Below are positions 15,842-64,000 of a stretch of 64,000 bases of DNA, one piece after another. The notes beneath the pieces are model-generated. The model made no database searches, was not told the DNA's origin, and was given only the letters and a program-made list of their open reading frames with translations. Source of the stretch: a virus (lineage: Duplodnaviria; Heunggongvirae; Uroviricota; Caudoviricetes); IMG/VR virus record IMGVR_UViG_3300020200_002792; one strand, 5' to 3'. The position numbers and the translations under genes are program-made. Positions within the stretch are counted from its first letter, which is position 1; each line of letters opens with the position of its first letter.

Positions 15842-16135
15842 TTAAATTATATTGAACAAATGAGAAAAGATTGGACTAAAGAAGAATTGAAGATATTGCA
15901 TACTAGAATTGAGATTCCTTTGGTCGAAATGTGCAAGCTTCTTCCTGGAAGAACAGGCAATGCTGTGAAGTACCCACGACCCTAAAGGGTCGGGGCTTCC
16001 TCTTTCACCCACAGTCGCTTGTGTTCCATTTAGGAGGTAAGTCTTATACCATGTCCACAGGCTTAAATTCCCCCACTTCCTGGGGTATAAGAGCCTTAAA
16101 TTTTGGTTCTCAAATACATCACACTTGGTTATCAT
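15842..16135 (-). CDS. questionable ORF whose N-terminal 57 aa are encoded by repeat A copy 1
   Basis: Shares MITKCDVFENQNLRLLYPRKWGNLSLWTWYKTYL...GSPDPLGSWVLH with ORF 63530..63976. The rest is low-quality sequence. Confidence 0.2.
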   Translation of the reverse strand: MITKCDVFENQNLRLLYPRKWGNLSLWTWYKTYLLNGTQATVGERGSPDPLGSWVLHSIACSSRKKLAHFDQRNLNSSMQYLQFFFSPIFSHLFNII

Positions 16136-16159
16136 GCGATGTATATTGAAGACGCTTTA
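15965..16159. repeat. 195-bp direct repeat A, copy 1; GC-elevated with several internal hairpins
   Basis: Near-identical (~94% then 100%) to 63806..64000. Internal stems tcttatacc/ggtataaga, cccca/tgggg and atacatc/gatgtat. ORFs read across it on both strands. Confidence 0.8.
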
Positions 16160-16202
16160 ACTTAGTATTTAGTTTGAAATTATTTCATAATTAGTCCTAT
16201 GG

Positions 16203-16303
16203 GCGACTTCATCCTCTACCCTAAAGGGCAAGCCTCTGTTTGCCTCACTCGCTTCACTCGTTCGTCTGCACAGAGGCTTGTGCTAAAGCATAGAGGTTTT
16301 CGC
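16203..16303 (+). repeat. GC-rich hairpin element X, copy 1
   Basis: cttcatcctctaccctaaagggcaagc; 10-bp stem caagcctctg/cagaggcttg; 32-nt loop; ggttttcgccgc. Present as an inverted copy at 63396..63507 with compensatory stem changes. Confidence 0.6.
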
Positions 16304-16824
16304 CGCCAAGAAGGATAAAATATATTTGGCGCAGCTGGTATATTGTGAGGTTTTATCCATTTTCTAAATTCTTTTGTATTCTTAAAATTTTTATTTCTAA
16401 CTATTTTTCTAGCTATTTTAAAAGCAAGAAATACCTTACATTTGTTAGCTAACCTATTAGTGCCAAGCCAATCACCCCAATTCGACCATTCTTTATATAC
16501 TTCGTTTGGATTTGCAGGAATATCAGTTGGTCGATCTTCTGATTTACAAAACAACCTCCATTCTTTTTGACCAGATAATTTTAAACTTACCACAATAGCT
16601 TTTGCTTTTAAAAATGGCAACCACCCTCCACGACGGCTATTAGTGCCAAGCCAATCACCCCAACATTGCCAATCATCTTTGTAAATGATATTAGGGCACC
16701 TGGGAATATCATCTGGCTTATTATCAGATTTACAGTATCTACGCCAGTCTGGGTTTTCGCTTTTTAAATTTAAAGAATGAACAAAATATTTTGCTTCTTC
16801 AAATGGTCTATATTTATTGTACAA
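16216..16824 (-). CDS. W-rich triple-repeat protein (IPxxPNxxYKxxWxxWGDWLG x3); possibly the detached C-terminal module of the upstream recombinase
   Basis: Three tandem repeats. Starts with TTG immediately after, and in frame with, the TAA of ORF 16825..18861. C-terminal tail reads into the X hairpin. Confidence 0.4.
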   Translation of the reverse strand: MYNKYRPFEEAKYFVHSLNLKSENPDWRRYCKSDNKPDDIPRCPNIIYKDDWQCWGDWLGTNSRRGGWLPFLKAKAIVVSLKLSGQKEWRLFCKSEDRPTDIPANPNEVYKEWSNWGDWLGTNRLANKCKVFLAFKIARKIVRNKNFKNTKEFRKWIKPHNIPAAPNIFYPSWRRKPLCFSTSLCADERVKRVRQTEACPLG

Positions 16825-18861
16825 TTAAATATTTCTTTTCTTTCTTGATTTAAATCGTGCAATTGTGCTTGGGCATTTATGTTTTTTCTTAGTTGCCATT
16901 GATCCCTCATAGAATTTACCGGCAAGATAATCAAACTCTTTACCTTTTGCCCAAGGATAAGACCTTGCCCTATAAAATTTTTGATAGTCTTCTTCACTAA
17001 CTTCAAGTTTCGCATCTACTCTAGTTGAATAAACACTAACGTATTTTTCTTTGTTTTGACAGTTTATATGTATTTTAATATCCATTTTATTCATAATCAA
17101 TTTTAAATCAATATCAGATGCTATGCCCTTTTTTAATTTCAATATTGCTTCTTCTAGTAAAAGTATATTCTTTTTTTCTGATAAATATTTTGGAAGGAGA
17201 TTTGGTTTTACATCCTTTTCTAATTCTATTTTTTCTCTTTCCAATTCTAAAGCTTTTTGCTTCAAGGTAGGCATACTCTCTTTTCCAATAAAGCGATACA
17301 TATTAGAAAGCTGTTCATCTATAAGTTTAATTTTGCTTACAATACCAGAATTTACCTTGTCTAATGCCAAAGAATATAGATATTCAAAATCACCATTACC
17401 AATATCAAATTGGCTTATCAAGTCCTGCATCGATAAAGCGGTATTTATTTTATAAGTGCTTAGATCATAGTTTTGCCAAAATGATAATCTAAAATAATCA
17501 TTTATTATACACACTAACATATTAAGAGCAAAAGACATACAAGCACCTGACTTATTTGTTCTATATCGTGTATTCTCCGATCTAACTACACAATGAACCT
17601 GCCTACCTCCAGAAACAAAATGGCAATCATGCACATCATCCCAAATAAAATCACTCAACCAATGAGCAGGTTTCTTTTCATAATTTCTCCTGCATAAATT
17701 ACTAAGCCCTTTACTTGCTCTAATCTTGTTCACCTTTTTTATATTTTCTGTTTGGCCAACTTCCAATGAAAGTATGTGTTGCCTTAATTCTTTCCATTCA
17801 TCAAATGGCAACAAATTAAAAATAGGCTTGTCTGGGTACACCCAATTTGATTCTGGAACATCATCGGGTTTACATTTCCCTAATCTTGCATTTCTATTCC
17901 TTTCGAATCCATCTGCTTCTTTTTTATTTCTAAAAAACATAGCGGGTGATGATGGTTTTGTAGTTTTACCAATAACAGGCAATCCAACACATACCGAATT
18001 AAGAATAAGTTTGCGACATCTTTCACCAGTCCAACCACAACCATACGAATCTTCAAAATGTTTGGTTAATTCAATAGCCAATTGATTCCAAGTGTAGCCA
18101 ATACCCATTTTTCTTTGCTCTTGACACCAATTAAAAATATACCATAATATTTCTATTCTTTCTTTGTCGCCAGTTAAACAAAGTCGTTGAATGTCCTTTG
18201 TTTTTTCGTGCTTAGACGGATTTTCTTTTTTAATTTCTCCATTAGGCATAATCACTATATGTCGTGTTTTAATACCTAACTTTTTAGCTTTCATTTTACT
18301 AATTATTTCTCGCCAAGTAAAAATATGATTGCCAAACAAATCCTCTCTTCTTACGTCACACAACCAAGGAATATTAAACCCAACATATAACCCCATTTTG
18401 GCCATCGCTTCATGTTTGCCCTTTATTCTTTTTGACAAAGATTCTAATTCATCTGTAGCAATAGCAAACAAACAAGTGGTCATAACTCTTTCAGTAATAG
18501 TTTCTGGAAAACATATATCCCATAACATATTCGGAGTAAAAATTGAGATTTTATGCGGGATAAAGAATTCATTTTTCTGTTTTTCCCATAATTCATAAGT
18601 TCCAAAACGAGTTGCATCTGAATACCACAAATTAAACCCATCAGGATGCAGACAAGATATTTCTTCTAGCTTTTTGAATGAATCTCTTTCAATGCATCCT
18701 CTTTTTTGGCCTTTATCTTCCAGCCACACATCATATTTAATTCCTAAATTATAGGCTAAATTTGCTAAAGTTTCTTTTTGACGATCACAATCTTGGTTAT
18801 TGGTTGAAACACGAACAGCAGCAACATTAATCTTTTTCTCTAAAAATTTCTTATCAGACAT
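16825..18861 (-). CDS. large serine recombinase (resolvase/invertase-type catalytic domain, 678 aa)
   Basis: N-terminal AAVRVSTNNQD...RQKE, the resolvase catalytic serine motif. Size like TnpX/phage large serine integrases. Confidence 0.7.
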   Translation of the reverse strand: MSDKKFLEKKINVAAVRVSTNNQDCDRQKETLANLAYNLGIKYDVWLEDKGQKRGCIERDSFKKLEEISCLHPDGFNLWYSDATRFGTYELWEKQKNEFFIPHKISIFTPNMLWDICFPETITERVMTTCLFAIATDELESLSKRIKGKHEAMAKMGLYVGFNIPWLCDVRREDLFGNHIFTWREIISKMKAKKLGIKTRHIVIMPNGEIKKENPSKHEKTKDIQRLCLTGDKERIEILWYIFNWCQEQRKMGIGYTWNQLAIELTKHFEDSYGCGWTGERCRKLILNSVCVGLPVIGKTTKPSSPAMFFRNKKEADGFERNRNARLGKCKPDDVPESNWVYPDKPIFNLLPFDEWKELRQHILSLEVGQTENIKKVNKIRASKGLSNLCRRNYEKKPAHWLSDFIWDDVHDCHFVSGGRQVHCVVRSENTRYRTNKSGACMSFALNMLVCIINDYFRLSFWQNYDLSTYKINTALSMQDLISQFDIGNGDFEYLYSLALDKVNSGIVSKIKLIDEQLSNMYRFIGKESMPTLKQKALELEREKIELEKDVKPNLLPKYLSEKKNILLLEEAILKLKKGIASDIDLKLIMNKMDIKIHINCQNKEKYVSVYSTRVDAKLEVSEEDYQKFYRARSYPWAKGKEFDYLAGKFYEGSMATKKKHKCPSTIARFKSRKKRNI

Positions 18862-19920: not shown

Positions 19921-19935
19921 CTCCTTAAATAAATA

Positions 19936-20768: not shown

Positions 20769-21812
20769 TCAAGCCATCTTCTTAGAAAATTCACTTACAG
20801 AGACAGAAGGATACTTTTCTTCCATTTCTGCTAATTTCTCAACTGCACTTTTATAGTCTTTTTTAATATTTTTAGGTATTTCTAGAATGGGCCTGATGAC
20901 AATATCCCCTAATTTCTTATTATTGAATACAGGAACACCTAGATTTTTTAATACTATAGGATCAAGGCTTCCAGGCTTAATTTCAAATTTTAATTTTTCA
21001 TTTTTCAAATCTTTAATATTTAGTTTTGCCCCAAAAACCAATTGCGAAAAAGTAACAGGAAAATCTACAATAAGATTTCCACCTTCACGCTGAAAGAAAG
21101 GATGGTCTTTTACAATAACAATAAGAAACAAATCACCAGGATTACGCCCAGGCACTTTAGATGGTTCGCCTTCGCCTGGAATCCTGATTTGCATGCCAGA
21201 ATCTATACCAGCAGGAATATCGACATTAATATTCTTATGGCCAGAAACTTTAAAGCCACTTCCAGTGCATTCCTTACAATCGACTGCACTTTCTCTACCT
21301 GTTCCTGCACATTCTTTACAAGTTTGAAATATTTTAAAAGGAGGTTGAACGACAAATTGTTTACCGCTACCTGAACATGTTTTACATCCAACCCAATCAG
21401 TGAAACCTTTGCCTTCGCATTTATCGCATTTAGAATATTGATTAACTTTAACACTTCTAGGGCATTGAACCAATATATCTTTTAATTCAAGTTCTACTTT
21501 GCATTGTATATTGCGGCCTTTTTGACTACCTCCACCAAACATACCCTCAAAGATTGAATCGAAATCAGGGAATGGGTTAGCTCTATGATGGTGATGCTTA
21601 CCTACTGTGCCAAAACTATCATATTCTGCCTTTTTATTGGCATCAGATAGGATTTCATAAGCTTCACTAACTTCTTTGAATTTAGTTGCTGCTGCTTCAT
21701 CCCCTGGATTTCTATCAGGATGGAACTGTAAAGCTAACTTTCTGAAAGATGATTTAATTTCATCTTCAGTGGCAGTTTTACTTATCCCAAGGACATCATA
21801 AGGGTTATTCAT
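20769..21812 (-). CDS. dnaJ: DnaJ (Hsp40) type I co-chaperone
   Basis: J-domain with HPD (YDVLGI...FHPDRN); G/F region; four CxxCxGxG zinc-finger repeats. Confidence 0.85.
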
Positions 21813-22122
21813 CTTCTTCTTCTATGACTGCTTTCACATTATGTGCTTCTATAATGCCCAGCACACGATCTTGTCCAGGAGGCTTTGGCATTGGTATATA
21901 ATGTCCTTGAATTACTACACGGCTACCTATCTTAAATCCTAAATTAGCTGTTTCTAATGCTGGCCCCATATCAAGGATATAAGCTTGAGGGGCACCCATA
22001 TCAGCATTCTCGTTTAAGGCAAGCCTGCTACCACTTGCCTCTTGTGCGGTTAACTGTTCAACAAGAATTTGAGACAAAACAGGACGGACTCCTTTTATTC
22101 TTCCAGGTATTTTCTTTTTCAT
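21805..22122 (-). CDS. GroES/Cpn10-family co-chaperonin (T4 gp31-like)
   Basis: 105 aa; [11 protein letters not shown]...[13 protein letters not shown] resembles Cpn10. Overlaps dnaJ by 8 nt. In T4, gp31 is required for gp23 folding. Confidence 0.5.
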
Positions 22123-22345
22123 ATAAATAATTCCTCTACTTTAGAATTAGAATGAATAAACAATGTATCGTTATTCATTTCTGGTTTATTTTCTTCTTCG
22201 TATTCTCTTTAAATACTCAAACAAAGAGTATTCGCTGATTCACGATTATAATGATAGCCTTTGTGATAAGCAGCTATCATTAAATCCATTACTTCATTTC
22301 TATTAAAATACATTGTACCTCCTTTGTTATAGTAAAATTTTAAAT

Positions 22346-23182
22346 TTATACTACGACTCTACCTTTTAATTCTTCCCAATCTTTTTCTGGCCTTACTTCA
22401 AGATTCTTTTCCCACACACCATTCATAACCTTTGGGTCAATACTCAACTCCTTAGCCAAACACATTAAAGCGTTTAAATCTTTAGGGAAACATGCAAGGC
22501 CAAATCCACACTTAGAATCCGGTCCAGGCACAGCCCAATGCGATGTTCCTAAACGCTTATCTTTTGTACTATATTCCACAACTTTATCATAGTCAATGCC
22601 AAGTTTTTGACATATTTGGTATATTTCATTAGCAAAAGAAACCTTTGTGGCTAAAAAACAATTTGTTACATATTTAACCATTTCAGCTATAGTCGAACTA
22701 GTTTTTGTAGTAGGAACATCTGGATAAGCTTGTTGATACATTTGTTTTACGACATCAACAGCATCATGCGGCCCACCAATAATAATCCTGTCTTGTTTCG
22801 CAAAATCCTCTAAAAAATTTGCTTCCCTTAAAAATTCTGGATTAAATACACATTTTACATGCTTTGATTTATTATTTATTCTTTCAGTGGTTCCAGGAAC
22901 AATCGTAGACTTTATAATTACTATTTGTTCTTTTCCTACAGCATCTATTTCATCTATAACGCTTTCGACAATACTAGTATCACATGATCCATCTTCTTTC
23001 ATTGGAGTAGGAACACAAACAAAAATTGGCCCATCAACTGCATCAACTAATTCAGCAACAGAAAATATAGAAGAATCAATAGGTTTTATGTGCCTGTCAT
23101 AAAAAAACACTTCAAATGCATGATTCATTCCAGAAATAACAGCATTGCCAACAAAGCCTTTGCCTATGACACCAAGTTTCAT
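22346..23182 (-). CDS. UDP-glucose/GDP-mannose 6-dehydrogenase family protein, truncated at the start of the C-terminal UDP-sugar-binding domain
   Basis: IGKGFVGNAV; VCVPTP; KSTIVPGTT; FNPEFLREANF; GFGLACFPKD (catalytic Cys). Ends at ...LKGRVVV, where the C-terminal domain of Ugd would begin. Confidence 0.6.
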   Translation of the reverse strand: MKLGVIGKGFVGNAVISGMNHAFEVFFYDRHIKPIDSSIFSVAELVDAVDGPIFVCVPTPMKEDGSCDTSIVESVIDEIDAVGKEQIVIIKSTIVPGTTERINNKSKHVKCVFNPEFLREANFLEDFAKQDRIIIGGPHDAVDVVKQMYQQAYPDVPTTKTSSTIAEMVKYVTNCFLATKVSFANEIYQICQKLGIDYDKVVEYSTKDKRLGTSHWAVPGPDSKCGFGLACFPKDLNALMCLAKELSIDPKVMNGVWEKNLEVRPEKDWEELKGRVVV

Positions 23183-23454
23183 TTGAAAGCTTCCTCCACG
23201 ATATCTTTAGCAAATTTATTATAAATTCTTTTCTTTTTTAATATCTTGTCTACTTTATCAACAAGATATCTTTTTGTTTCAATTAGTGAATTTCTATAGT
23301 CTTCATCTAACTTGTTTTTATAATTAATGAATTTTTCTTCTTCCAATGCCATGAATGTATTAACTTTTTCGTTAAGTTCATCCATTTCTTCATAACATTT
23401 AAGTTGAATATGCTCTACTTCACGTTCCATTTTTCGATATAGTTTACTCATCAA
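23179..23454 (-). CDS. hypothetical small protein
   Basis: Charged, coiled-coil-like. Part of a same-strand overlapping array. Confidence 0.3.
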   Translation of the reverse strand: MMSKLYRKMEREVEHIQLKCYEEMDELNEKVNTFMALEEEKFINYKNKLDEDYRNSLIETKRYLVDKVDKILKKKRIYNKFAKDIVEEAFK

Positions 23455-23683
23455 TATGCTCTCTTTTAGCTAAAACTTTTTTGGTTAATGCATGGTTGTC
23501 TTTCCATGCTTGGCTACTTTTGACTATTTTTCCGGCCCGTCCGGTATGCCAATCATCATCCCAATCAGGAGTTTCGTGACAACTATGCAAACTCCTTAAA
23601 TAAGCCAATAAATTACGTGTAGACAATTTTTCAAGTTCACTTTCAGTTAAAAGTTTTGATTTACCACGTTTTCCCATAAACAA
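23444..23683 (-). CDS. hypothetical small protein
   Basis: Same-strand overlapping array. Confidence 0.3.
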   Translation of the reverse strand: MFMGKRGKSKLLTESELEKLSTRNLLAYLRSLHSCHETPDWDDDWHTGRAGKIVKSSQAWKDNHALTKKVLAKREHIDE

Positions 23684-23942
23684 ATGTCCTTATTTTATCT
23701 GTCAATTCTTTATCAGTAACAACAGTAAGACTATTTCTACTAGGAATAAAATAAATCATAGTATTTTCTTCTATACCTTCATCCCACACCTTCTTTGCTT
23801 CTTCATCCCTATACCAAAAAAAACTATCAATTTCATCACACTCAATAACGGCATTTTCCCATTCAACAAAATTCATAATTTCTTTAATGACTTTTGTTGG
23901 GTTATTTGTTGGAATTATTGTATCGTAGCCACCTATTTCCAT
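23661..23942 (-). CDS. hypothetical small protein
   Basis: Same-strand overlapping array. Confidence 0.3.
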   Translation of the reverse strand: MEIGGYDTIIPTNNPTKVIKEIMNFVEWENAVIECDEIDSFFWYRDEEAKKVWDEGIEENTMIYFIPSRNSLTVVTDKELTDKIRTFVYGKTW

Positions 23943-25396
23943 TACTTTAATCCTTGCGCCATTTGGAAACCTTTTTCGTCATGATTAACAGTCCAAGCTA
24001 CTTTGTGAACTACTGCATCGAAAGTACCTGCTGCTGAAGGCCAACCGTATCCACTGGCCTTAACACCACCAAAAATTTGTTGTGATTCAGCCCCCACGCC
24101 TGGCAAATTAGCATACCCCAAACCGAAATCACAATTGTCCCTGACATATCTCATTTTACGATAGTCATTAGTACAAACAGCACAAGATAAACCAAATTCT
24201 GTGTCATTGTATATTTCTACTGCCTCTTCTAAACTATCAAATGGAATTATTGCGACATGTGGGCCAAAAACCTCTTGATGAAGAAATGGCAGATCACTCC
24301 ATTCACAGGTATAAACATGAGGAGTTAGAAAATAACCCTTTCTATTTAATCTTTCCCCCTTTAACAAAATATCAGCATTCCCTTCAGTGCTTCTATTATA
24401 ATCTTCTACCTTTTTTAATTGGGTAGAACTAATAAGTGGCCCCATGAAAACATCAGGTTCATCAAAAGCACCAACTTTTATATTCTTAGAAGCTTCAACA
24501 AAACGTTCAATAAATTCCTGCACCCCACTTCTTTCAATCAACAATCTTCCAGAAGAAACACATCTTTGTCCACTTAATTTATAAGCACTAATCACACATG
24601 CATTAACAGCTAAATCCATATCAGCATCAGAAAAGACTATAACCGCTGACTTGGAACCCATTTCACAAGAACAGGTTTTTCCAGTTGCAACGGCATCTTC
24701 TTTAATAAATTGTCCTACTGCTACACTTCCAGTAAAACAAATATGGTTTATATCCTTGTGGGCCGAAAGAAAATGTCCAGTAAAGCCATCTCCATGAACA
24801 AGATTAAAAACACCTTTAGGAAAACCTGCATCATGATAAAGCTCTGCCATCATTTCACTAGCAGCAGGTGCATCTTCTGATGGTTTAAGAACAACTGTGT
24901 TTCCTTCAAGAATGGCAGGAGCAGCACACCAGGCAGCACCAATAGCACAGCAAAAATTCCAGGGGGCTATCACGCCCACAACACCTTTAGGTTTTCTGAT
25001 TACATACGAATCCTTTTCAGCTATCTCAGAAGGTATAATTTCTCCGTTAGGCATTCGTCCTTTAGAGAAGGTATATTGAAGCATATGCAGAGTTTCATTT
25101 ACTTCTGCTACGCTTTCGTTTAAAGTTTTACCTGTTTCATTTGATATGCATTGCACTAAAGAATCAAATCTAGCTTTAAGCAAACCACACATATTATCAA
25201 AATATTCGGCTCTTTTTACACGACTAACCTTTCTCCACTCAGCAAATACATTTTTAGCACTTTTAACTGCATCATTTACTTCTTCGTATCTAGAATTTTG
25301 AAATTCACCTAATGATTCTTCTGTTGCTGGATTTATATTTGAGAACTCTTTACGATTTGGGATAAAGACACCATTAACATAATTATTACCGTTCAT
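23942..25396 (-). CDS. NAD(P)-dependent aldehyde dehydrogenase
   Basis: ALDH motifs VIAPWNF, LKPSE, EMGSKSA (ELGGKSP) and GQRCVSSGR (catalytic Cys). Confidence 0.85.
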   Translation of the reverse strand: MNGNNYVNGVFIPNRKEFSNINPATEESLGEFQNSRYEEVNDAVKSAKNVFAEWRKVSRVKRAEYFDNMCGLLKARFDSLVQCISNETGKTLNESVAEVNETLHMLQYTFSKGRMPNGEIIPSEIAEKDSYVIRKPKGVVGVIAPWNFCCAIGAAWCAAPAILEGNTVVLKPSEDAPAASEMMAELYHDAGFPKGVFNLVHGDGFTGHFLSAHKDINHICFTGSVAVGQFIKEDAVATGKTCSCEMGSKSAVIVFSDADMDLAVNACVISAYKLSGQRCVSSGRLLIERSGVQEFIERFVEASKNIKVGAFDEPDVFMGPLISSTQLKKVEDYNRSTEGNADILLKGERLNRKGYFLTPHVYTCEWSDLPFLHQEVFGPHVAIIPFDSLEEAVEIYNDTEFGLSCAVCTNDYRKMRYVRDNCDFGLGYANLPGVGAESQQIFGGVKASGYGWPSAAGTFDAVVHKVAWTVNHDEKGFQMAQGLK

Positions 25397-25701
25397 AAAA
25401 CGCTCCTCCTTTATTGCCGAAAGTTTTTATATAACTCTCGCCAGATATAGAATAAAAATAATTATAAATATCTTTTAGAGCTTGCACAATACCAGTTTCA
25501 TTTAATTGGCAACGAACTGCTGCAATTTAATAGGAAGGTCAGCCGAATTCTGGTTTTTGAAGTGTTTCTTTAAGGGATAGTCTATAACCTTTATACCATC
25601 CCCATGTATTAGGCCCGGTCCAAAGATTTGATATATATAATATTATTTTACGTTCTTGAAGAGTCAGCATTCATATAGATTAATATAAGTTCAATAATTA
25701 G

Positions 25702-26091
25702 TCAATTGAACTTTCTGTTTAAAAGTTCTAAAATCTTAATTCTTTCTTTTAATTTTTCAATTTCTTCAGCGGCTTCTTGAGCTAACTTATCTGGGAATAC
25801 AATTCTTGGGTCATATCTCGATTTGAGCCTTTCTAATATCCATTCAGAATTATGGTATTTTACACTCATGTCAAAAGAAAAAGTTAATTTGACGCCCTTA
25901 TAAATTTCTTCTACATAATTTTTAACAACATTATATTCACAAATAGAAACAATGCTGTCGCTAGAAACCAGTTGAATTTTCATGCTATTCAAATCTGGAT
26001 TAAATGAACATGCGAATATCGATCCGTCATCAAGTTCGACAAAAACACGTTCTGCATTGCATCCTTGAACTTTACAATTAATTACTTTCAT
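25702..26091 (-). CDS. hypothetical protein
   Basis: No recognised motif. Confidence 0.3.
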   Translation of the reverse strand: MKVINCKVQGCNAERVFVELDDGSIFACSFNPDLNSMKIQLVSSDSIVSICEYNVVKNYVEEIYKGVKLTFSFDMSVKYHNSEWILERLKSRYDPRIVFPDKLAQEAAEEIEKLKERIKILELLNRKFN

Positions 26092-26369
26092 TATGTTTCC
26101 TCTGAATCATTTAACAGATCAATAATTTCTTGTTGGGTAATAACCTTAAAACTATCAAACGTATTGATATCTATTGCTATTGGTGCTTTATTAATCTCTG
26201 TTAAAATGATAGCAAATAACGATCCATTTGTTGCGTGAAAGGTTGTTTCATACAAGCCATAGAAAACCGAACTGTTCCCACCATAAGTAAACCTACAATA
26301 ATCCCCTTCTTCGACTAATGTATTATCAAAAAAACTAACTAAACTTCCATATTCATCACAATTTAACAT
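26091..26369 (-). CDS. hypothetical protein
   Basis: No recognised motif. Confidence 0.3.
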   Translation of the reverse strand: MLNCDEYGSLVSFFDNTLVEEGDYCRFTYGGNSSVFYGLYETTFHATNGSLFAIILTEINKAPIAIDINTFDSFKVITQQEIIDLLNDSEET

Positions 26370-26370
26370 T

Positions 26371-26892
26371 TTAATCTCCTAAAGGTTTAATTAAACAAAA
26401 TATTCTTGACCCATTTAACTTAGGTTTCTGGTCAATAATAGCCTCTTCTCCTAATGCACTAATAACATAGTTCATTACTTTGAATCCTTCTTCTTTATGC
26501 GTAATTTCCCTATTTTTAAATTCTAGACTTAATTGCACTCTTTTGCCTTCAGATAAGAATTTTTTAATATTATTGATTTTAATATCGACATCGTGTATTT
26601 GTATAGCAGGACGCAGCCTGATTTCTTTAGTTTCAACAAAAGCTTCTCTTTGTTTTTTATGCTGTTCTTTTTCTTTCTGCTTCTGTTGATAGCGATACTT
26701 ATTATATTCAACGATGTGGCAGACGGGTGGATTGGCTTGAGGTACAACTTCAACTAGGTCTAAACCAGCTTCTTGGGCCATTGTCCTTGCTTTATCGGTA
26801 GGCATTATACCTATTTGTTCACCATCTCTTATTACCCTTACATTTGGAACTCTTATTTGAAAATTGACTCTGGTAAATTTCTTGTTTTGCAT
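26371..26892 (-). CDS. infC: translation initiation factor IF-3, bacterial type
   Basis: IRV..VRVI...GEQIGIM...AQEAGLDLVEV.P.ANPPVC.I..Y.KY and the C-domain KEIRLRP..DVDIK align along the whole length with bacterial IF3. Confidence 0.8.
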   Translation of the reverse strand: MQNKKFTRVNFQIRVPNVRVIRDGEQIGIMPTDKARTMAQEAGLDLVEVVPQANPPVCHIVEYNKYRYQQKQKEKEQHKKQREAFVETKEIRLRPAIQIHDVDIKINNIKKFLSEGKRVQLSLEFKNREITHKEEGFKVMNYVISALGEEAIIDQKPKLNGSRIFCLIKPLGD

Positions 26893-26895
26893 AAT

Positions 26896-45075: not shown

Positions 45076-45279
45076 TCAGTCAATACTAAATAGACCCCCA
45101 ATAGAATTTGGATAAGCACTTAAATCATCCCCCTGATACTCGCTAACTCTCACAACAGACAACCATTTATTGCTTTTCATATATTTATTCGCTTCTTCCT
45201 CATCAATAAAAACCTTAGTTAAAAACCAAGGAGAAAAAAGCCCACCATAATCATCTTCATAAATTAAGTAGACTTTCAT
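45076..45279 (-). CDS. hypothetical small protein
   Basis: 67 aa, overlaps the upstream gene stop. Confidence 0.3.
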   Translation of the reverse strand: MKVYLIYEDDYGGLFSPWFLTKVFIDEEEANKYMKSNKWLSVVRVSEYQGDDLSAYPNSIGGLFSID

Positions 45280-55618: not shown

Positions 55619-57232
55619 TCATTTATAATCATCGTATTCAAGTCGTTTCATTACAACAGTATCTTTATCTGCATCCTTGCCAACACACAAGAATACAACT
55701 TCATCGCCACCATAATTTCTACTAGCAAGCACAATTTCACTGCCCCATAAAGAATACAAAGCAGTCATTGTTTCCCTAGTATATCTTTCTTCTAACATCC
55801 TGCCATCCCAAACATGTTGTAAAAGCATCCAGCCTTTATTTCTGTGATTAGGATCGGTTAATCTTATATCAGGAAGACCTCTATTTAACTTACTTCTTAC
55901 TAAATTATTCTTAATTTTCTTGAAACTTTCTGGCGTATCCCCTCTGTTTTCAATAACATGATCACCATTAGGCTGTCTCTTCCATTCAAAGAACTCGTAC
56001 TTCTGGCAGAAATCTTGTGTGAAAAATTCATTAATCAACATCACATCATCATAATATTTCCTAACTTCAAATACTTTTTCCCTACCTTTACCCAACTTTT
56101 CATCCCAATTTTCTTTTTTATTCAAATCTCGACAATTTTCCCATTCATCTCCAAATTTACCTTTATCCCATCTATCTTCTATATCCATAAGAAGTTGGAA
56201 CCCAAGTCTATACGGATTAGCACCATATTTGTCACCTAAAACCATCATTTTGTGTTTTGCATATTCAATAATACCACATCCATAATTTGTACCAATCATA
56301 TCTGCCCAACCACGGCGGCACATCATGTCAAAATCGCCATAACTTGCAAATCCCTCATTAATTGTCTTAGTCATTCCTTGAGGACTAAAATACAAAGCTT
56401 CATCATAAAGCATGCTTGCAATATCAGCTTGCCACGGTTTTAGAGGAGCATAATTCTTTATAAAACCAAATATATCCTTTTCTGGTTCGGCAAAAATACC
56501 CAAATCCTTAATTTTATCAATATGCTTTATTCTTTCATCTTCTTTTTCTTTAAATTCTTTGGTATTAAAATAAGGTTCCATGTAATCATGACCCACAGGC
56601 ACCATTACTCTTCTTGGCAACTCATATTCTTTTTTATCTTGAATAATTGGTTCTTGAATTTGTCTTTCATCCCATATCTTTACTGGATCAATCAATGTTT
56701 CAATTGCCAAAATATTATCAATAAATTCAAAAACCGTCTCTGCTCCGTATCTGTCAATATATTTTCTAATTCTATTTCCGTGATTGGCCATCTTATTCAT
56801 CATGCCAGTATTTGTTGGCTTGAACACTATGTTGTTTTTAAAGAAATCATTATGAAATGTAGCATGAGCAACAACTGTAGCATTATCTAAAAGCGTATTT
56901 GAATTCAAAAGATACATTACACAAGGAGATGTGTTGATCACGATTTCGAACACTCTTTGCATGCCATATTCATAACCTTTATGAAATTCTTCGTATGCCA
57001 TTCCAAACCGCCAATGAGGATAACGATTTGGAAAGCCGTTATAAGCCACAATCTCGCTCATCTCGTCATAAGTTAGTTTTTGGATAATGGTAGGATAAAA
57101 ATCGGCACCGGCTTCACGACAGGCAACAAGAATCTTAGAAAATAAATCTTTTTCAATTTCTGTTAAGTGCTGCCCAGGAACAGTAGCATTTCCTGAAAGT
57201 AATGGGGCACCACGACCAAATTTTGAATACAT
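55619..57232 (-). CDS. SpoVR/YcgB family protein
   Basis: ADFYPTIIQKL..DEM.EIVAYNGFPNRYPHWRFGMAYEEFHKGYEYGMQRVFEIVINTSPCVMYLL matches the SpoVR N-terminal signature. Operonic with YeaH-like and PrkA-like genes. Confidence 0.7.
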   Translation of the reverse strand: MYSKFGRGAPLLSGNATVPGQHLTEIEKDLFSKILVACREAGADFYPTIIQKLTYDEMSEIVAYNGFPNRYPHWRFGMAYEEFHKGYEYGMQRVFEIVINTSPCVMYLLNSNTLLDNATVVAHATFHNDFFKNNIVFKPTNTGMMNKMANHGNRIRKYIDRYGAETVFEFIDNILAIETLIDPVKIWDERQIQEPIIQDKKEYELPRRVMVPVGHDYMEPYFNTKEFKEKEDERIKHIDKIKDLGIFAEPEKDIFGFIKNYAPLKPWQADIASMLYDEALYFSPQGMTKTINEGFASYGDFDMMCRRGWADMIGTNYGCGIIEYAKHKMMVLGDKYGANPYRLGFQLLMDIEDRWDKGKFGDEWENCRDLNKKENWDEKLGKGREKVFEVRKYYDDVMLINEFFTQDFCQKYEFFEWKRQPNGDHVIENRGDTPESFKKIKNNLVRSKLNRGLPDIRLTDPNHRNKGWMLLQHVWDGRMLEERYTRETMTALYSLWGSEIVLASRNYGGDEVVFLCVGKDADKDTVVMKRLEYDDYK

Positions 57233-57240
57233 GTTAATCC

Positions 57241-58458
57241 TTATAAAGACATGTCAAATAAAACAGCTTCTTTTTTGCCTAAAAGTTCAATAATAGCTTT
57301 TTTAATAGCCAAGTTGCGTTCGTCATCTGACAATTCATCAGGTTCCCAACTTCCAGAAGAATAATCAATACTTTTTTCTTTTCCTATGGAAACTGATCTG
57401 TAATTAGCTTTATTCTCCAAATTATCATCAACAAATTTCTTCAAACTTCTTTTATAATCATAAGCCATAATCTGAGTGATACCAAATAGATTGCAGACAT
57501 TAGGAGGAAATTTTTCTTTCAAAGTATTCAGAAAAACATCATTATCTTCATCATAATTATCCCCATCCGTGAAATAGAACACATAAATATTCCATTTTTC
57601 TGGAGGAAATCTGTCTATAAATTGATTAGCCATTAATTTTAAACAGCTACTGCAAGTTGTACCGCCGCCATACCTATATGAATAAAATTTCTTTTCATCA
57701 AGTTCCTGAGCAACTGTATCATGCCAAAAATAACATCTCTCAACTCGTTCATAGAAATGCCTAATCCAAACATCAATCCACCAACACATGTCACTAACCA
57801 CATTACATTTCCAATCATCCATAGAACCAGAACCGTCCCTGCCAAACATAATTACTGCATTGCTACTAGGCTTTTTAATTTCCTTCCATTGTCTAAACCT
57901 GAAATCTCTATCGATTGGAGTTATCAGTTGGATAGGCTGATTTAATCCAGGAAGTTGATGCAAATTATTGATTTCACCTGTAGCACACAAACGCCTTAAA
58001 GCTTCCAACATGGTCCTGCGAAGATGTCTTAAGCTATCTGGACCATTTAAAGATATGTTATTGTATTTTATATCGAATTCATCAACCGTATCATTTTCTT
58101 TGGGTCTAAGATCGGGTAAACACAGTTGGTCCTTCATGAATTGAAGTATATATTCCATAGGAACACTTACCTCAACTCCTTCGCCTTCTTCTTGCCCTGC
58201 ACCATTGCCTTTTTCACCTTCTTTATCACTATCTATAACATCGCCTTTTTTACCAGGCCCACGACCAATACCAGTTGTTGGATCACCATAAATAATGTGC
58301 GGAGTATTAATGCGTGGTAAAGCTATAGACATATGACCATTTTTACCCTTTTTGGCAGTAAAACGTCCCGTATCGAAAAACTTTTTCAGGGCTTTACGTA
58401 AGTTTCCTCCTATAACGTCCCAAAAATGTTTTCGGTCTATTTCAATATTTTTTGGCAT
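57241..58458 (-). CDS. YeaH/YhbH (DUF444) family protein
   Basis: IALPRINTPHIIYGDPTTGIGRGPGKKGDVID... resembles DUF444. Middle gene of the prkA-yeaH-spoVR arrangement. Confidence 0.65.
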   Translation of the reverse strand: MPKNIEIDRKHFWDVIGGNLRKALKKFFDTGRFTAKKGKNGHMSIALPRINTPHIIYGDPTTGIGRGPGKKGDVIDSDKEGEKGNGAGQEEGEGVEVSVPMEYILQFMKDQLCLPDLRPKENDTVDEFDIKYNNISLNGPDSLRHLRRTMLEALRRLCATGEINNLHQLPGLNQPIQLITPIDRDFRFRQWKEIKKPSSNAVIMFGRDGSGSMDDWKCNVVSDMCWWIDVWIRHFYERVERCYFWHDTVAQELDEKKFYSYRYGGGTTCSSCLKLMANQFIDRFPPEKWNIYVFYFTDGDNYDEDNDVFLNTLKEKFPPNVCNLFGITQIMAYDYKRSLKKFVDDNLENKANYRSVSIGKEKSIDYSSGSWEPDELSDDERNLAIKKAIIELLGKKEAVLFDMSL

Positions 58459-58465
58459 TTATAGC

Positions 58466-61400
58466 CTAATCCTTATTGCTTTGAGTACCAGCAAATAGAC
58501 TGCCAACATAATTTAATACATCCGTGGCAGACTGCTGATTATATTTATACTGATCTATTAATCTCTTCTTGACCAAATCAATCTTTTCTTGCAAATCAGG
58601 TTGAACAGTACCAGCAGACTCCACATCTAATGAAGACAATTTAACATGTTCCTTGACATCATCAAATAGTTTAGCTTTCAAAGCTTTTTTCAACTGCTGG
58701 TCACTATCCCATCTAAACTTCTCGCCTTTATTAGCCAAATCACCGATAAAAGCAGCTATAGAAGTTCTAAAAGCGTCAATGCCTCTTTCTGGAACGTCAA
58801 TCTTTTCTTCAATTGACCTCATTAACTTCTCGCTAGGTGGTTCTTCCCTTTGAGTGAATGGGTTCTTGATTTTAGATTTCCTAATATATGCCATCACATT
58901 ATCGATGTAATTAGCACAAATTCTTTCAAGAGCCTTGGCATCACCGCTTAAAGCTTCTCTTACCTCATCTTTTAAAATTTCATTCAATTCTTGTATTGTT
59001 AGCTCCACACAGGTATGGTATCTAGCTAATTCTTCTTTATCTTTGATCAAAGCGTGATTATCCAATCCTTCTCTAATTTCATTCATAACCATAAAAGGAT
59101 TAATATAATCATAATTTGCACTCAAACAATTGCTAATCTTATCTTGTGTATACCTAGCACTGATACCAAATTCCATTCCCTCTTCTGGATATTTGTCCTT
59201 ATATTCCTTGACTGTTTCTTCATTAAACCCAGGTAATATTTCGCCATTATACAACTTAGCTTTCTGTACTGGTGTTAATTTACCTTCTTTATCTGGAGAT
59301 AACCTTGTTAGAATTGTCCACAATGCAGCGACTTCAATAGTATGAGGAGCAATATGTTGTGGAACTTTGCCTTCGCCATAATCTTGCTCCAAAACTTTAA
59401 TTTCATCAGCCAATCTTGTCAAGTATGGAACGTCTATCTTAACAGTACGATCTTTCAAAGCTTCCATGAAAGGATTGCCGAGAAGTTTCTTGTACTCTGG
59501 TTGATTTGAATGGCCCAAAAGCATCTGATCCACAGAAACTTGACTAAACTTCTTAGGTTTAATTTGTTTCTCTTGGCTTGCTCCTAAAAGATCATATAAG
59601 AACTCTTGTGCCAATTTCAGCATTTCAATGAATTCAACTAATCCTCTATTACCAACACATAATTCGCCATTAAAACCAAACGAATTATGGCTAACAAAAC
59701 CGTTGGCCCAATAAGCATGTGTTTCAGGAACGCTCAAATCATAAACATTAATTTTACCTACTTTAGATATGCTTTGGATTGGCAACCAAATAAATTCATC
59801 AGTTAATATTTGTTTTAATGTTTGATAATCAACATCATCATGTGATACTTCTATACTTTCCAAGAAATGTGCCAAAGTTTCATAAGCAACATTAGGTTTT
59901 CTTATTGCATCATGCAAACTACCATTATATTTGCTAATCAAACTAGCCTTATTAGTAGCTTTTTTAAACAAATTAAGCATCAAAGGCTTAATATTAGGCA
60001 AAACATCTACATTAGGAGATGCTTTAGTATCAGTCAAATATCCAGCAGTAAATCTTTTTTCCAAAGAAGGAATAAATTTCAATAATTTGTTGACATTTTT
60101 TCCATAACAACGAACTCGCCAACATCCTTCGTCTTGATATATACCGGATATTACACCAAATGCAAGCAAAACAGATTGAACTTGATCACATAAAACTTCA
60201 GAACAAGAAACAAAAACAGATGTATTAGAACCATTGTTGTTTCTTAAATTTCCATCTGTCTCAAACAATCCCCGCAAAAATTCTGCAACTATAGGAGCAG
60301 GAGAAGCTAAGATACAATCTGGAATGGTCTTAAAAGCAGCATGAGAACAAACCCCTAAAACTTCTTTAAACCAAGATACAAGTTTATTACAACAAACTCT
60401 AGCCACTCCGCTATGATCTTCACGTTGATCGTTTCTTAATTCAATATTGAAACATTCTTGGCATAAATCAATAAAGTCTTGCCTTCTATCATCTTCTTTT
60501 TGAGTATACCCAAATTCATAATTATGAGAATTTTCATTAACATAAATATGGCCATCTCCAGTCCACAAACCTAATAAATATGCTAATTTCTTAGTAACTT
60601 TAGTTGGGAAAATTAAATTATGCTTTTCATTTCCATACATTTCTGGATTAAATGGAGGCAGTTCTACCTCTTTACCAGCCTCCATTTTTAAATATGGACT
60701 TGCTCCTCTAATTAAAGCAATATAATCTCCACTATTTAAATGTTTAACATGTTTCCAAACAACTTGACCATTTTCTAATGTCAAAAACCTATGTTGTTTC
60801 GTACAAGTAATTGAATATCCCAACTTAGTTTTAACTTTATAAGCAGTTTTCTTCCCGCCATTATAAACACTATTAATAGAATTTAATTTATCCTTATCAA
60901 AACTTTGCACCATCAAATCAGAATAAGCAAAACAATCTGCTTTTAATTCATTAGGAACAAACTTTTTAATTTTTCCAATGCCATTGTTTGTAAAAATTAA
61001 AGTATCTCCAGCAACACATCTCGCATCAGCGTCACTGCCAAAATGGGCAAGATTTCTAAAATTAACATCACCAGTTAACTCTGTAGCATCTTGGTTTTTT
61101 TCATCTTTAGGTTGGAAAGTACCAATACCAACTCGATCTGATTCGGAGTGAACCTTTCTCATTACAACGATATGTTCTTTTAATACTTTTTCCCAATCCC
61201 CATCATACAAATTCATTAGCTCATCCATGAATATCTTACATCTTGGGCACAATTCTCCATCACATTTCAACCTATAAACCTTATTTCTTTGTTCCTTAGG
61301 CAAACTATCAAGGTAAACCTCATTTAACTCTGCAAACATCTTAGTTCTGATATTTTGCGGAACTAACTTAATTGGGTCTTCATTCATAGGACAACAATCT

Positions 61401-61876
61401 TCGTCACTAATAAAAACCTTTTGAGGAAGTTTAATCCATTTAAAGGAATACCAAGCTCCTGCATCTGTCCTTGAATATCTTTCCAGACCCTTTTTAAGAA
61501 GTCTCGCTATAGTTGATTTAGCTGAGCCTACTGGACCGTGTAACAACAAAATACGCTTTTCAGTACCATAATTACCTGCTGCACCTTTAATAAACTTAAC
61601 AATACTATCTAATGTTTCTTCTAAACCAAAAATGGGTACTTCTTCGTCATCAAAAAACTTATAATGATTAAGACTCTTGTGGTATTTTATGAAAGGCTCA
61701 TATCCTTTAGAACAAACCATATCATAAATTCTCTGATAAGCTGTTCTGACAAGCAAAGGATTTTCAAAAACCTTTCCAAGATATTCGTCAAATGATATCT
61801 TTTCATGCAAATTAGCGTATAAATTTTTATCGAATCTCTCTGCAAGCTTACTTAAAGAGTCAAATTTCTTTTCCAT
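58466..61876 (-). CDS. PrkA/YeaG-type AAA+ serine protein kinase interrupted by an intein (extein ~691 aa)
   Basis: N-terminal AAA block ILLLHGPVGSAKSTIARLLK. Extein length after intein removal fits PrkA (~640-700 aa). Confidence 0.75.
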   Translation of the reverse strand: MEKKFDSLSKLAERFDKNLYANLHEKISFDEYLGKVFENPLLVRTAYQRIYDMVCSKGYEPFIKYHKSLNHYKFFDDEEVPIFGLEETLDSIVKFIKGAAGNYGTEKRILLLHGPVGSAKSTIARLLKKGLERYSRTDAGAWYSFKWIKLPQKVFISDEDCCPMNEDPIKLVPQNIRTKMFAELNEVYLDSLPKEQRNKVYRLKCDGELCPRCKIFMDELMNLYDGDWEKVLKEHIVVMRKVHSESDRVGIGTFQPKDEKNQDATELTGDVNFRNLAHFGSDADARCVAGDTLIFTNNGIGKIKKFVPNELKADCFAYSDLMVQSFDKDKLNSINSVYNGGKKTAYKVKTKLGYSITCTKQHRFLTLENGQVVWKHVKHLNSGDYIALIRGASPYLKMEAGKEVELPPFNPEMYGNEKHNLIFPTKVTKKLAYLLGLWTGDGHIYVNENSHNYEFGYTQKEDDRRQDFIDLCQECFNIELRNDQREDHSGVARVCCNKLVSWFKEVLGVCSHAAFKTIPDCILASPAPIVAEFLRGLFETDGNLRNNNGSNTSVFVSCSEVLCDQVQSVLLAFGVISGIYQDEGCWRVRCYGKNVNKLLKFIPSLEKRFTAGYLTDTKASPNVDVLPNIKPLMLNLFKKATNKASLISKYNGSLHDAIRKPNVAYETLAHFLESIEVSHDDVDYQTLKQILTDEFIWLPIQSISKVGKINVYDLSVPETHAYWANGFVSHNSFGFNGELCVGNRGLVEFIEMLKLAQEFLYDLLGASQEKQIKPKKFSQVSVDQMLLGHSNQPEYKKLLGNPFMEALKDRTVKIDVPYLTRLADEIKVLEQDYGEGKVPQHIAPHTIEVAALWTILTRLSPDKEGKLTPVQKAKLYNGEILPGFNEETVKEYKDKYPEEGMEFGISARYTQDKISNCLSANYDYINPFMVMNEIREGLDNHALIKDKEELARYHTCVELTIQELNEILKDEVREALSGDAKALERICANYIDNVMAYIRKSKIKNPFTQREEPPSEKLMRSIEEKIDVPERGIDAFRTSIAAFIGDLANKGEKFRWDSDQQLKKALKAKLFDDVKEHVKLSSLDVESAGTVQPDLQEKIDLVKKRLIDQYKYNQQSATDVLNYVGSLFAGTQSNKD
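59684..61018 (-). mobile_element. LAGLIDADG intein in PrkA (445 aa)
   Basis: Starts CVAGDTLIFTNNG, ends GFVSHN followed by SFG. LAGLIDADG blocks LAYLLGLWTGDGHIY and EFLRGLFETDGNL. Confidence 0.75.
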
Positions 61877-61930
61877 TATATCTCCTTACTAATAAATTAT
61901 AACTAATATAAAAGTTAATGCAATACGTAT

Positions 61931-62548: not shown

Positions 62549-62550
62549 TT

Positions 62551-63087: not shown

Positions 63088-63099
63088 ATTCTAATAGAG

Positions 63100-63384
63100 T
63101 TAATGTTTGCGATTAGCTATGCCAGTTTTGTTTAAAATATATGGTCTAGCAGGAAGATGTCCAGTTTTGAAAGGATTCATATGCTCTGGACCGCCTTTTC
63201 GAAAGATTTGTCTTGGAATTTGCTTGCCAAAATCTAAATTACTTATTCCACGTAATTTTAATTCATCAAGTGCTAAAAACTCCTTAAAAGTCATATTGTA
63301 TTTATCACAATAATAAGTTATTCTGGCTCCCAAAATTCCTCTCCATTTTTCCAATAATGGACAATATATCCAGGACCAGACCAA
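63100..63384 (-). CDS. hypothetical protein
   Basis: No recognised motif. Confidence 0.3.
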   Translation of the reverse strand: MVWSWIYCPLLEKWRGILGARITYYCDKYNMTFKEFLALDELKLRGISNLDFGKQIPRQIFRKGGPEHMNPFKTGHLPARPYILNKTGIANRKH

Positions 63385-63395
63385 TGATATTTTTT

Positions 63396-63507
63396 ATCTA
63401 ATTGAGCGGCGAAAACCCCTACTTCGCTAGAAGCAAGCATACGGCAGGGAGTTGAGCGAAGCGAAACGACCAGAGTATGCTTGCCCTTTAGGGTAGGGGA
63501 TGAAGCC
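63396..63507 (-). repeat. GC-rich hairpin element X, copy 2, inverted relative to copy 1
   Basis: The reverse complement matches X1 in both flanks (cttcatcccctaccctaaagggcaagc; ggttttcgccgc). Stem gcaagcatac/gtatgcttgc has compensatory changes relative to X1. Confidence 0.6.
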
Positions 63508-63529
63508 GTCTCCTAAAAATAACACCTAA

Positions 63530-63976
63530 TCAACCAATCATTGAACACTGATTGCACTCACTAACATTTGCACCGCTAGAAAGTGCCTCAAAATCTTCCT
63601 TCTCTTCCATGTCATATAACTGATACAATATTTCATAGTAATCATGCTCTGTCGCACCAATATGCAAATCATAGAAGTGCTGTCTTCCTGCATCCGATAA
63701 CAAATACTCGGTCATGCGATATATGGCATCCTTCTCATTCTTGCCAGCAGGAGCAATAAGTTCTCCAATAGCAGCAGAAACTAAATTTGTATCACCGACA
63801 TAAGGGTGAAGTACCCACGACCCTAAAGGGTCGGGGCTTCCTGCTTCATCCACAGTCGCTTGTATTCCACTTGGGAGGTAAGTCTTATACCATGTCCACA
63901 GGCTTAAATTCCCCCACTTCCTGGGGTATAAGAGCCTTAAATTTTGGTTCTCAAATACATCACACTTGGTTATCAT
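63530..63976 (-). CDS. hypothetical protein; N-terminal 57 aa encoded within repeat A copy 2, unique C-terminal 91 aa
   Basis: Unique part ...GDTNLVSAAIGELIAPAGKNEKDAIYRMTEYLLSDAGRQHFYDLHIGATEHDYYEILYQLYDMEEKEDFEAL looks protein-like. N-terminus shared with ORF 15842..16135. Confidence 0.3.
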   Translation of the reverse strand: MITKCDVFENQNLRLLYPRKWGNLSLWTWYKTYLPSGIQATVDEAGSPDPLGSWVLHPYVGDTNLVSAAIGELIAPAGKNEKDAIYRMTEYLLSDAGRQHFYDLHIGATEHDYYEILYQLYDMEEKEDFEALSSGANVSECNQCSMIG

Positions 63977-64000
63977 GCGATGTATATTGAAGACGCTTTA
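63806..64000. repeat. 195-bp direct repeat A, copy 2; truncated by the window end
   Basis: Matches 15965..16159. Confidence 0.8.

Follow-up and report, generated by a model that had tools for sequence, protein, structure and literature searches.

A stretch of 64,000 nucleotides of DNA from a tailed virus (IMG/VR record IMGVR_UViG_3300020200_002792; ‘the window’ in what follows, meaning the whole of that stretch) carries two kinds of structured repeat, termed A and X, each of which is present twice. The window derives from a large T4-like phage, with a gp23-type major capsid gene at 9641-11116, and the first A and the first X lie close to a gene (16825-18861, minus strand) for a 678-residue protein with a resolvase N-terminal domain, which is 0.5 kb away from that X. 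The initial annotation of this DNA pointed to the repeats and to the serine recombinase gene adjoining them (which is indeed present), and proposed that the repeats bracket a segment of about 47 kb and might act as recombination sites, as packaging or replication signals, or as structured RNAs. The analysis reported here leads to another interpretation: A very probably constitutes the right end (RE), and X the left end (LE), of insertion sequences (ISs) of the IS200/IS605 family, and the copies in the window are non-autonomous elements of the PATE kind (for palindrome-associated transposable element) with a TnpB-type guide RNA (omegaRNA). Elements of this kind have already been described, and those in the window are new examples of it.

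Repeats in the window

The two A repeats (A1, 15965-16159; A2, 63806-64000) are direct repeats of 97% identity, much as originally described, and their six differences are grouped within about 35 nucleotides. A2 stops where the window stops, which is not where the repeat itself ends, as can be seen from an overlapping contig (locus L099, in the numbering used here for A- and X-containing loci) that runs on past it. The two X repeats (X1, 16203-16306, plus strand; X2, 63396-63508, minus strand) are GC-rich sequences of about 100 nucleotides that are mutually inverted and about 72% identical, with common flanks of CTTCATCC.CTACCCTAAAGGGCAAGC on one side and GGTTTTCGCCGC on the other, so that the reported opposite orientation and conserved flanks of this pair also stand.

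Each X folds into a long imperfect hairpin of about 100 nucleotides (z-scores of -3.6 to -4.8; -3.6 to -5.9 over A and X), within which an inner stem of 10-12 bp is kept despite different letters in the two copies (CCTCTGT/ACAGAGG versus CATAC/GTATG). The compensatory nature of this stem had been taken from the start as a sign of selection on structure, and the view that the elements are under such selection is upheld. The window has exactly four occurrences of the 10-mer reported as common to A and X, CCCTAAAGGG, and these are in A1, X1, X2 and A2. For A an elevated GC content had been noted; outside genes, GC content peaks at these four repeats alone, against 34% for the window. No copies of A or X beyond these four were found in the window.

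Three other classes of repeat or inserted sequence were considered and rejected. Template and variable repeats of a diversity-generating retroelement are not a suitable description of A1 and A2, as no reverse transcriptase was found among the open reading frames (ORFs) scanned and the differences between the two repeats fall in RNA stems. A group I or group II intron was set aside on the basis that there is no Rfam match and that the unit is found in intergenic and antisense contexts, and prophage att sites on the basis that the repeat is an internally structured unit of 350 bp, with ends of its own, at many loci.

Assignment of the repeats to the ends of IS200/IS605-family elements

A scan of IMG/VR for exact matches to the core of the A hairpin, GACCCTAAAGGGTCGGGGC, returned 36 viral loci. 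Across loci, elements of the A type start with GTGAAC or GTCAAC...CCC(A)CGACCC, and the DNA upstream of that start is unrelated from one locus to another. At six loci (L004, L006, L014, L015, L020 and L034), an ORF of 346-389 residues on the opposite strand stops at or within the A hairpin. The four such ORFs that were scanned against Pfam (those of L004, L006, L015 and L020) contain OrfB_IS605 and Cas12f1-like TNB domains, accompanied in two of the four by HTH_OrfB_IS605, and therefore correspond to TnpB; TnpB with such ends is found at L002, L004, L006, L014, L015, L020, L027, L034, L095 and L097. At L008, L025 and L036 the gene beside A instead encodes IscB (RRXRR and HNH domains) and reads away from the hairpin, and in elements of this type X is placed after the iscB stop codon. 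The HUH transposase TnpA (Y1_Tnp, PF01797) is found with such ends at L015, L025, L095, L097, L098 and L100.

The A-type end and the X-type hairpin are regularly paired, in the same orientation, at more than 20 loci (judged from all occurrences of CCCTAAAGGG in the loci listed), at a spacing of 1171-1915 nucleotides where they enclose tnpB or iscB and of 146-315 nucleotides in ‘mini’ elements with nothing between them. This regular pairing, either around tnpB or iscB or close together, leads to the assignment of A as the RE and X as the LE of one element. By sequence, then, A appears to combine an RE with the scaffold of a TnpB omegaRNA, and X to be an LE hairpin; X-type hairpins sit on the side of full-length elements at which tnpB starts. 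The RE hairpin CCCCGACCCTTTAGGGTCGTGGG is invariant in all seven aligned sequences, the LE is a long hairpin with CCCTTTAGGG, and imperfect palindromes, in place of terminal inverted repeats, are found in subterminal positions at both ends of the element. The sequence shared by copies of one subfamily begins exactly with GTGAAG at the RE and extends exactly to ATAAA or GTAAA at the LE. In addition, the A ends of IscB-type elements match the HEARO family of Rfam (RF02033) with scores of 123-156 bits, with position 1 of the model falling on the element boundary. The earlier suggestion that A and X are recombination sites survives in part, in that they would be substrates of a DNA recombination reaction (transposition), but not in the form of recombinase sites that bracket 47 kb.

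A complete copy in an integrase-repeat gene

A1, a spacer of 43 nucleotides and X1 together make up a complete, protein-less mini element of 350 bp (copy 1; 15965-16314, minus strand), which reads in the order LE (X1), spacer, scaffold (A1) and RE. The A1 portion (15965-16170, minus strand) consists of the terminal hairpin of the RE, GACCCTTTAGGGTC and then GTGGGTACTTCAC, and a scaffold of about 200 nucleotides; its 5' limit is approximate, and the core that is backed by covariation covers approximately 15973-16085. X1, as the LE (16203-16314, minus strand), is a long imperfect hairpin that contains the CCCTTTAGGG sequence plus an inserted, variable stem-loop, and was assigned from its folds and from its alignment to the LEs of L001, L002, L004 and L032. 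Immediately beside it is the transposon-adjacent motif (TAM), TTTAT (16315-16319, minus strand; ATAAA on the plus strand). On the other side, just outside the RE, is the predicted 20-nucleotide guide of the copy 1 omegaRNA, AGCAUUGCCUGUUCUUCCAG (15945-15964, minus strand), which was placed by the rule for TnpB guides given in PMC10055086, with the RE boundary taken from copies in different flanks. The copy 1 unit recurs in other surroundings in L047 and L099; between the window and L047, the shared sequence runs from GTGAAG to GGATAAA.

Copy 1 disrupts a gene for an INT_rpt (integrase-repeat) protein (16216-16824, minus strand) that lies next to the recombinase gene, with the TAM located in the codons for ...NIFY. 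When the flanks of the element are joined (GGCAATGCT joined to ATAAAATATAT), the resulting predicted empty site encodes ...GRTGNAIKYIW..., which is a better Myb-like motif. Within the INT_rpt gene itself, 27 bp of DNA are repeated perfectly, at 16454 and at 16637; the mini element interrupts the third repeat unit of the protein at ...IPAAPNIFY, and the final 29 codons of the gene are LE sequence.

A second copy, nested in another insertion sequence

A2 (63806-64000, minus strand) is the RE and omegaRNA portion of a second copy of the mini element. The other 155 bp of that copy, together with its TAM, are found in L099, which overlaps the last 1000 nucleotides of the window with 1000 of 1000 positions identical and holds copy 2 in full. 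There, copy 2 is preceded by TTTAT, and element and TAM together are identical to those of copy 1 at 349 of 355 positions. The predicted guide of the copy 2 omegaRNA is CCUUAUGUCGGUGAUACAAA (63786-63805, minus strand).

X2 partners neither A1 nor A2, and is instead the LE (63398-63520, plus strand) of a third, separate, full-length IS200/IS605 element of the type found in L095, L097 and L100. In contigs of that type, an X2-like LE closes a full-length element that reads RE, tnpB, tnpA (Y1), passenger ORF and LE. The copy of this IS in the window is decayed, and the window contains neither its tnpA and tnpB nor its RE. Its LE abuts a TTTAT motif (63393-63397, plus strand), and this LE is common to the window, L100 and L097, whose sequences part immediately beyond ATAAA/TTTAT. 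From 63392 to 63805 the window is identical to L100 (100%) save for an indel of 75 nucleotides, and is 87% identical to L097 and 81% identical to L095.

The passenger ORF of this IS (63530-63805, minus strand) reads MVRFIYPYVGDT...CNQCS in intact copies, and in the window has lost its first six codons to copy 2, which was inserted after codon 6. Its homologues (P0003-P0005) begin with MVRF(I/V)Y-PYVGDT, and the continuation of the window’s ORF into A2 is a spurious extension. The passenger ORF is about 100 residues long and is located between tnpA and the LE (3001-3303 in L095, 3001-3294 in L097, 700-918 in L100); no Pfam match was found for it.

In L100, both tnpA and the passenger ORF are intact and X2 does not differ from that of the window; the contig also displays the copy 2 site in its uninterrupted form: TTTAT followed by CCTTATGTCGGTGATACAAA, with 20 of 20 positions matching in L100, 18 of 20 in L097 and L098, and 17 of 20 in L095 and L096. 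The filled site reads ...GATTTAT, 350 bp of element and CCTTATG..., while the empty site (in L100 and L095-L098) reads ...TTTAT and then CCTTATG... (TTTAT joined to CCTTATGTCGG), with no duplication of the target site. The empty site in L100 therefore establishes that insertion occurred 3' of the TAM and without target duplication, and that the predicted guide of copy 2 is the sequence of the vacant site, as the TnpB model requires. On the TAM side of copy 2, the flank in L099 supplies an in-frame ATG (ATGATTTAT, then CCT). That flank (L099, 2069-2258) contains an ORF of 73 residues, beside an IMPDH gene (with a weak Hint-domain match) and a NUMOD3 gene.

In this genome, each of the three LEs has TTTAT directly beside it (16315-16319 and 63393-63397 in the window, and 2254-2258 in L099). 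Across the family, the motif that abuts the LE varies by subfamily: it is TTTAT at at least 10 sites, TTTAC in the L012 group and L027, and TTTCA in L001, L004, L008 and L036. TTTAT is also the TAM of TnpB2/ISGst2 of Geobacillus stearothermophilus (PMC10055086).

The RNA encoded by A

Covariation was assessed in an alignment of seven members of the family (A1 of the window, the A2 type, L012, L026, L032 and the tnpB-bearing L015 and L034). The consensus fold contains 26 base pairs in four helices, 99.5% of its cells are paired, and 11 of the 26 pairs exhibit compensatory changes on both sides; none of 500 shuffled alignments reached the observed pairing or covariation, and control alignments in which the sequences were slid were only 34-47% paired. 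With seven sequences these covariation statistics are to be read as indicative. The terminal hairpin is invariant across the alignment, which would be expected if it is also read, as DNA, by TnpA. About 20 G-U cells in the fold would become A-C mismatches on the opposite strand, which fits an RNA that reads as the minus strand, in the orientation of tnpB.

In L015 and L034, the sequence that aligns to the A of the window comprises about 35 codons at the end of tnpB together with the RE, and when the TnpB proteins of those two loci were used in tblastn searches of the window, the only matches were to A1 and A2, over those same final codons that overlap the scaffold. A encodes, on the minus strand, a structured omegaRNA scaffold of the TnpB type, and the earlier proposal that it might be a structured RNA is well supported by its covariation. 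The A sequence of the window does not match HEARO (RF02033) at an E-value of 10 or below, and a distant blastn search of the GenBank phage collection with A1 and X1 returned no match. IMG/VR, when scanned with a 29-mer specific to the window, likewise gave nothing, so that the genome of origin would not be in that collection.

Spread of the mini elements and its effect on assembly

The mini subfamily is found at at least five further sites, all in contigs from Lake Tanganyika (L016, L044/L047, L045, L046 and L048); none of the flanks at these sites match the window, and the contigs range from 34% to 49% GC. One of them, L047, contains both a mini copy and a tnpB-bearing IS related to the L095/L097 type (83-84% identity over about 1.2 kb). 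The end of the window is the same base, inside the mini element, at which L044, L045, L046 and L048 stop, and further contigs of this phage likewise end within an element, X1 in the case of L040-L043 and A2 in that of L039. The mini elements thus fragment short-read assemblies, which explains where metagenome contigs of this phage stop.

In a scan of genomes, the RE proper was found scattered among metagenome-assembled genomes (MAGs) of Bacillota and Bacteroidota. Many further matches, in Chloroflexi MAGs, are to something different: a REP-like double hairpin, GTAG..CCGAGGCTTTAGCCTCGG..CCCGACCCTAAAGGGTCGGGGCTAC, of which more than 20 copies were collected (L049-L091, from VGNX01, a Chloroflexi MAG from Lake Tanganyika, and from other Chloroflexi and Dehalococcoidia MAGs). 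It shares only the GACCCTAAAGGGTC hairpin with the RE of the ISs, and may be read by a related enzyme of the Y1/RAYT type.

Alternative explanations

The location of the recombinase gene 0.5 kb from X1, together with the inverted arrangement of X1 and X2 and the direct arrangement of A1 and A2, gave rise to the idea that A and X are att-like or inversion sites at which the 678-residue protein inverts or excises about 47 kb, an idea that now seems scarcely credible. In tblastn searches, none of the other loci collected with A and/or X, more than 85 in number, yielded a homologue of the recombinase (the only matches are to contigs of the same genome, L040-L043), no relatives were found in IMG/VR, and nothing beyond adjacency ties the protein to the repeats; elsewhere, A and X enclose genes for TnpB, IscB or Y1 TnpA, or form units of 250-450 bp. 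Nor do the repeats bracket a unit of 47 kb, since A1 and X1 belong to a single 350-bp element, the X that belongs to A2 lies beyond both that segment and the window, and X2 comes from a different IS. A variant of this idea, in which the enzyme is a serine transposase of the IS607 type, is hard to reconcile with the small size of IS607 transposases (about 200 residues), and IS607 ends are not known to have such hairpins. Furthermore, the same ends carry iscB together with a Y1 tnpA, and IS607-type serine transposases are associated with tnpB and not with iscB (PMC10055086). It is very improbable, too, that A and X are immobile regulatory RNA structures of the phage (terminators or riboregulators) that are conserved for a role in gene expression. 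Their strong folds would suit such a role, as would the form and position of X (a GC-rich hairpin followed by TTTTC at gene ends, including its placement after iscB), but a terminator scan of both A/X regions found no terminator-like site and nothing above shuffled background, the stem and loop of X falling outside the pattern of intrinsic terminators. Moreover, the flanks of the A/X units are unrelated, the genomes that carry them range from 24% to 49% GC, the units interrupt ORFs, A has no match in Rfam, and L100 provides a homologous site that is uninterrupted. No support was obtained for packaging or replication signals.

Several observations nevertheless weigh against the assignment to IS200/IS605-family elements, or against their activity. 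The empty site of copy 1 was not found: all three contigs that cover it are filled, and a protein search returned only the truncated allele. On the TAM side of copy 2 in L099, an unrelated ORF stands where tnpA and the beginning of the passenger ORF would be expected; element copies may have recombined with one another, DNA may have been deleted, or the contig may be an assembly chimera joined at the 350-bp repeat. Copy 1 has a G-G mismatch in helix 2 where all other members keep a G-C pair, and may be decaying. Neither A nor X has an Rfam match at the gathering score or at an E-value of 10 or below, RF03065 and RF02998 included; the tnpB-bearing relatives L015, L034, L095 and L097 likewise match no Rfam model of TnpB omegaRNAs, and RF03065 and RF02998 cover only a small subset of those RNAs (PMC10055086). 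No promoter-like site, and nothing above shuffled background, was found upstream of the omegaRNA on the minus strand, so that transcription would probably occur by read-through from the operon of the recombinase and INT_rpt genes. Finally, the tblastn searches with the TnpB proteins of L015 and L034 identified no tnpB in the window, and no tnpA was seen there, so both activities must come from elsewhere. The broken pair in copy 1, the missing promoter and the lack of tnpA and tnpB, together with the fixation of the copy 1 insertion in all sampled contigs, also favour a reading in which the elements are what they appear to be but are inert relics, mobilised at an earlier time, whose omegaRNA is no longer transcribed or used and whose sole effect is three truncated ORFs. 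We consider this unlikely, if a serious possibility: copies that are 97-100% identical at at least seven sites in the metagenomes of one lake argue for recent mobility, and the presence of a full-length tnpB IS together with a mini copy in L047, the intact tnpA beside the exact target of the copy 2 guide in L100, and a scaffold that covaries over subfamilies, protein-less members included, all point in the same direction.

Other features of the phage genome

A gene for transfer-messenger RNA (tmRNA) at 48009-48362 (minus strand) is the only Rfam match in the window (RF00023, 82.5 bits against a gathering score of 47) and was not called by ARAGORN. It is placed between the two halves of a split gene for the alpha subunit of DNA polymerase III (49983-52547 and 41335-45048, both on the minus strand and about 5 kb apart), in which the break corresponds to about position 99 of the DNA_pol3_alpha profile. 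Both halves contain their own LAGLIDADG intein, and the ends of the pieces have no obvious split-intein motifs. Further inteins are found in an AAA ATPase (45276-47345, minus strand; Hom_end_hint/Hom_end) and in PrkA (58466-61876, minus strand; Intein_splicing and LAGLIDADG_3). With its inteins and IS elements taken together, this genome is heavily colonised by selfish elements.

PrkA is encoded in a PrkA/DUF444/SpoVR operon (55619-61876, minus strand), and metabolic genes (also at 4928-7783 and 20769-28542) include those for methionyl-tRNA synthetase, adenylosuccinate synthetase, DnaJ and a thiamine pyrophosphate enzyme, to which the precomputed annotation of the contig adds aldehyde dehydrogenase and UDP-glucose dehydrogenase. 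Three small adjacent ORFs at 13817-15167 (plus strand) have in common a ribosome-binding site and start, AAGGAGATAAAATG..AATTATTGGTTAGATAGA, and a protein sequence of the form M.NYWLD..., and look like a small paralogous family.

Predicted mechanism and comparison with known systems

By analogy with other members of the IS200/IS605 family, a Y1 HUH TnpA supplied in trans would excise the mini element as single-stranded DNA and reinsert it directly 3' of TTTAT, without target duplication. If the element is transcribed, its omegaRNA would end in a guide drawn from the DNA outside the RE (AGCAUUGCCUGUUCUUCCAG for copy 1 and CCUUAUGUCGGUGAUACAAA for copy 2), and a TnpB supplied in trans would cut uninterrupted sites that consist of TTTAT plus the guide sequence, thereby favouring the copying of the element into them. 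On the same analogy, the elements in this phage may be transcribed, their guides may be used in trans, and the elements may still be mobile.

IS608 of Helicobacter pylori and ISDra2 of Deinococcus radiodurans have subterminal hairpins, insert 3' of a fixed motif of 4-5 nucleotides without duplication, and encode a Y1 HUH TnpA and an accessory TnpB, with an omegaRNA that overlaps the 3' end of tnpB and the RE. The window copies resemble them in having hairpins at both ends and in their insertion 3' of a TAM without duplication; they differ in the lack of tnpA and tnpB, in a TAM of TTTAT rather than TTAC or TTGAT, and in an LE that is unusually long (about 110 nucleotides) because an extra, variable stem-loop is inserted in its hairpin. 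With respect to HEARO, the omegaRNA of IscB, sister elements with an identical terminal hairpin (L007, L008, L010, L018, L025 and L036) are HEARO elements with the same boundary, whereas the A of the window has the opposite reading direction and its homology is to the scaffold of the tnpB type. The PATEs of haloarchaea, which according to the genome paper on Haloquadratum walsbyi are reportedly short, gene-less, multicopy elements with palindromic ends of the IS200/IS605 type, are like the window elements by definition only, with other hosts and no sequence relationship.

A published parallel to this arrangement is the network of ISGst1-5 elements in G. stearothermophilus, in which TnpB and IscB elements share LE and RE, one Y1 TnpA mobilises both types, the RE marks the limit of the omegaRNA in both, and the TAMs are TTTAT for TnpB and TTCAT for IscB (Meers et al. 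2023, PMC10055086). As in that network, the family examined here has TnpB and IscB relatives with similar ends, an omegaRNA at the RE, a TTTAT TAM and, beside the IscB-type LEs of L008 and L036, a TTCAT-like motif. Unlike that network, it is found in a T4-like phage and in lake metagenomes rather than in a bacterial chromosome, and one of its copies is nested in the passenger gene of an autonomous IS. The same study notes that gene-less PATE-like elements ‘often encode omegaRNAs’, for which TnpB would be needed in trans, and raises the possibility, without demonstrating it, that elements with an omegaRNA alone exploit TnpB in this manner (PMC10055086).

Implications

The interpretation of the window is corrected by these results, in that it holds no cassette of 47 kb bounded by recombinase sites. 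What it does hold is part of a natural test system, comprising a guide-RNA-only element of 350 bp, its likely autonomous relatives (with Y1 tnpA and tnpB), a TTTAT TAM and an exact target; every one of these components was obtained from lake metagenomes (Lake Tanganyika in the case of the mini elements), and a T4-like phage houses at least some of them. Such a system bears on the question of whether elements that encode only an omegaRNA exploit TnpB in trans. That the protein-less elements are working ‘guide-only’ parasites, which each make an omegaRNA with a guide determined by the place of insertion and use a TnpB belonging to the host or to a co-resident IS, is a speculative proposal that we regard as doubtful. 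If it were true, the guide of copy 2 (20 of 20 positions, plus TTTAT) would, through its match to the intact passenger gene, direct cleavage of the helper IS wherever it is uninterrupted, or of rival phage genomes that carry this IS, and copy 2 would home into them and so act as a hyperparasite drive within the phage population.

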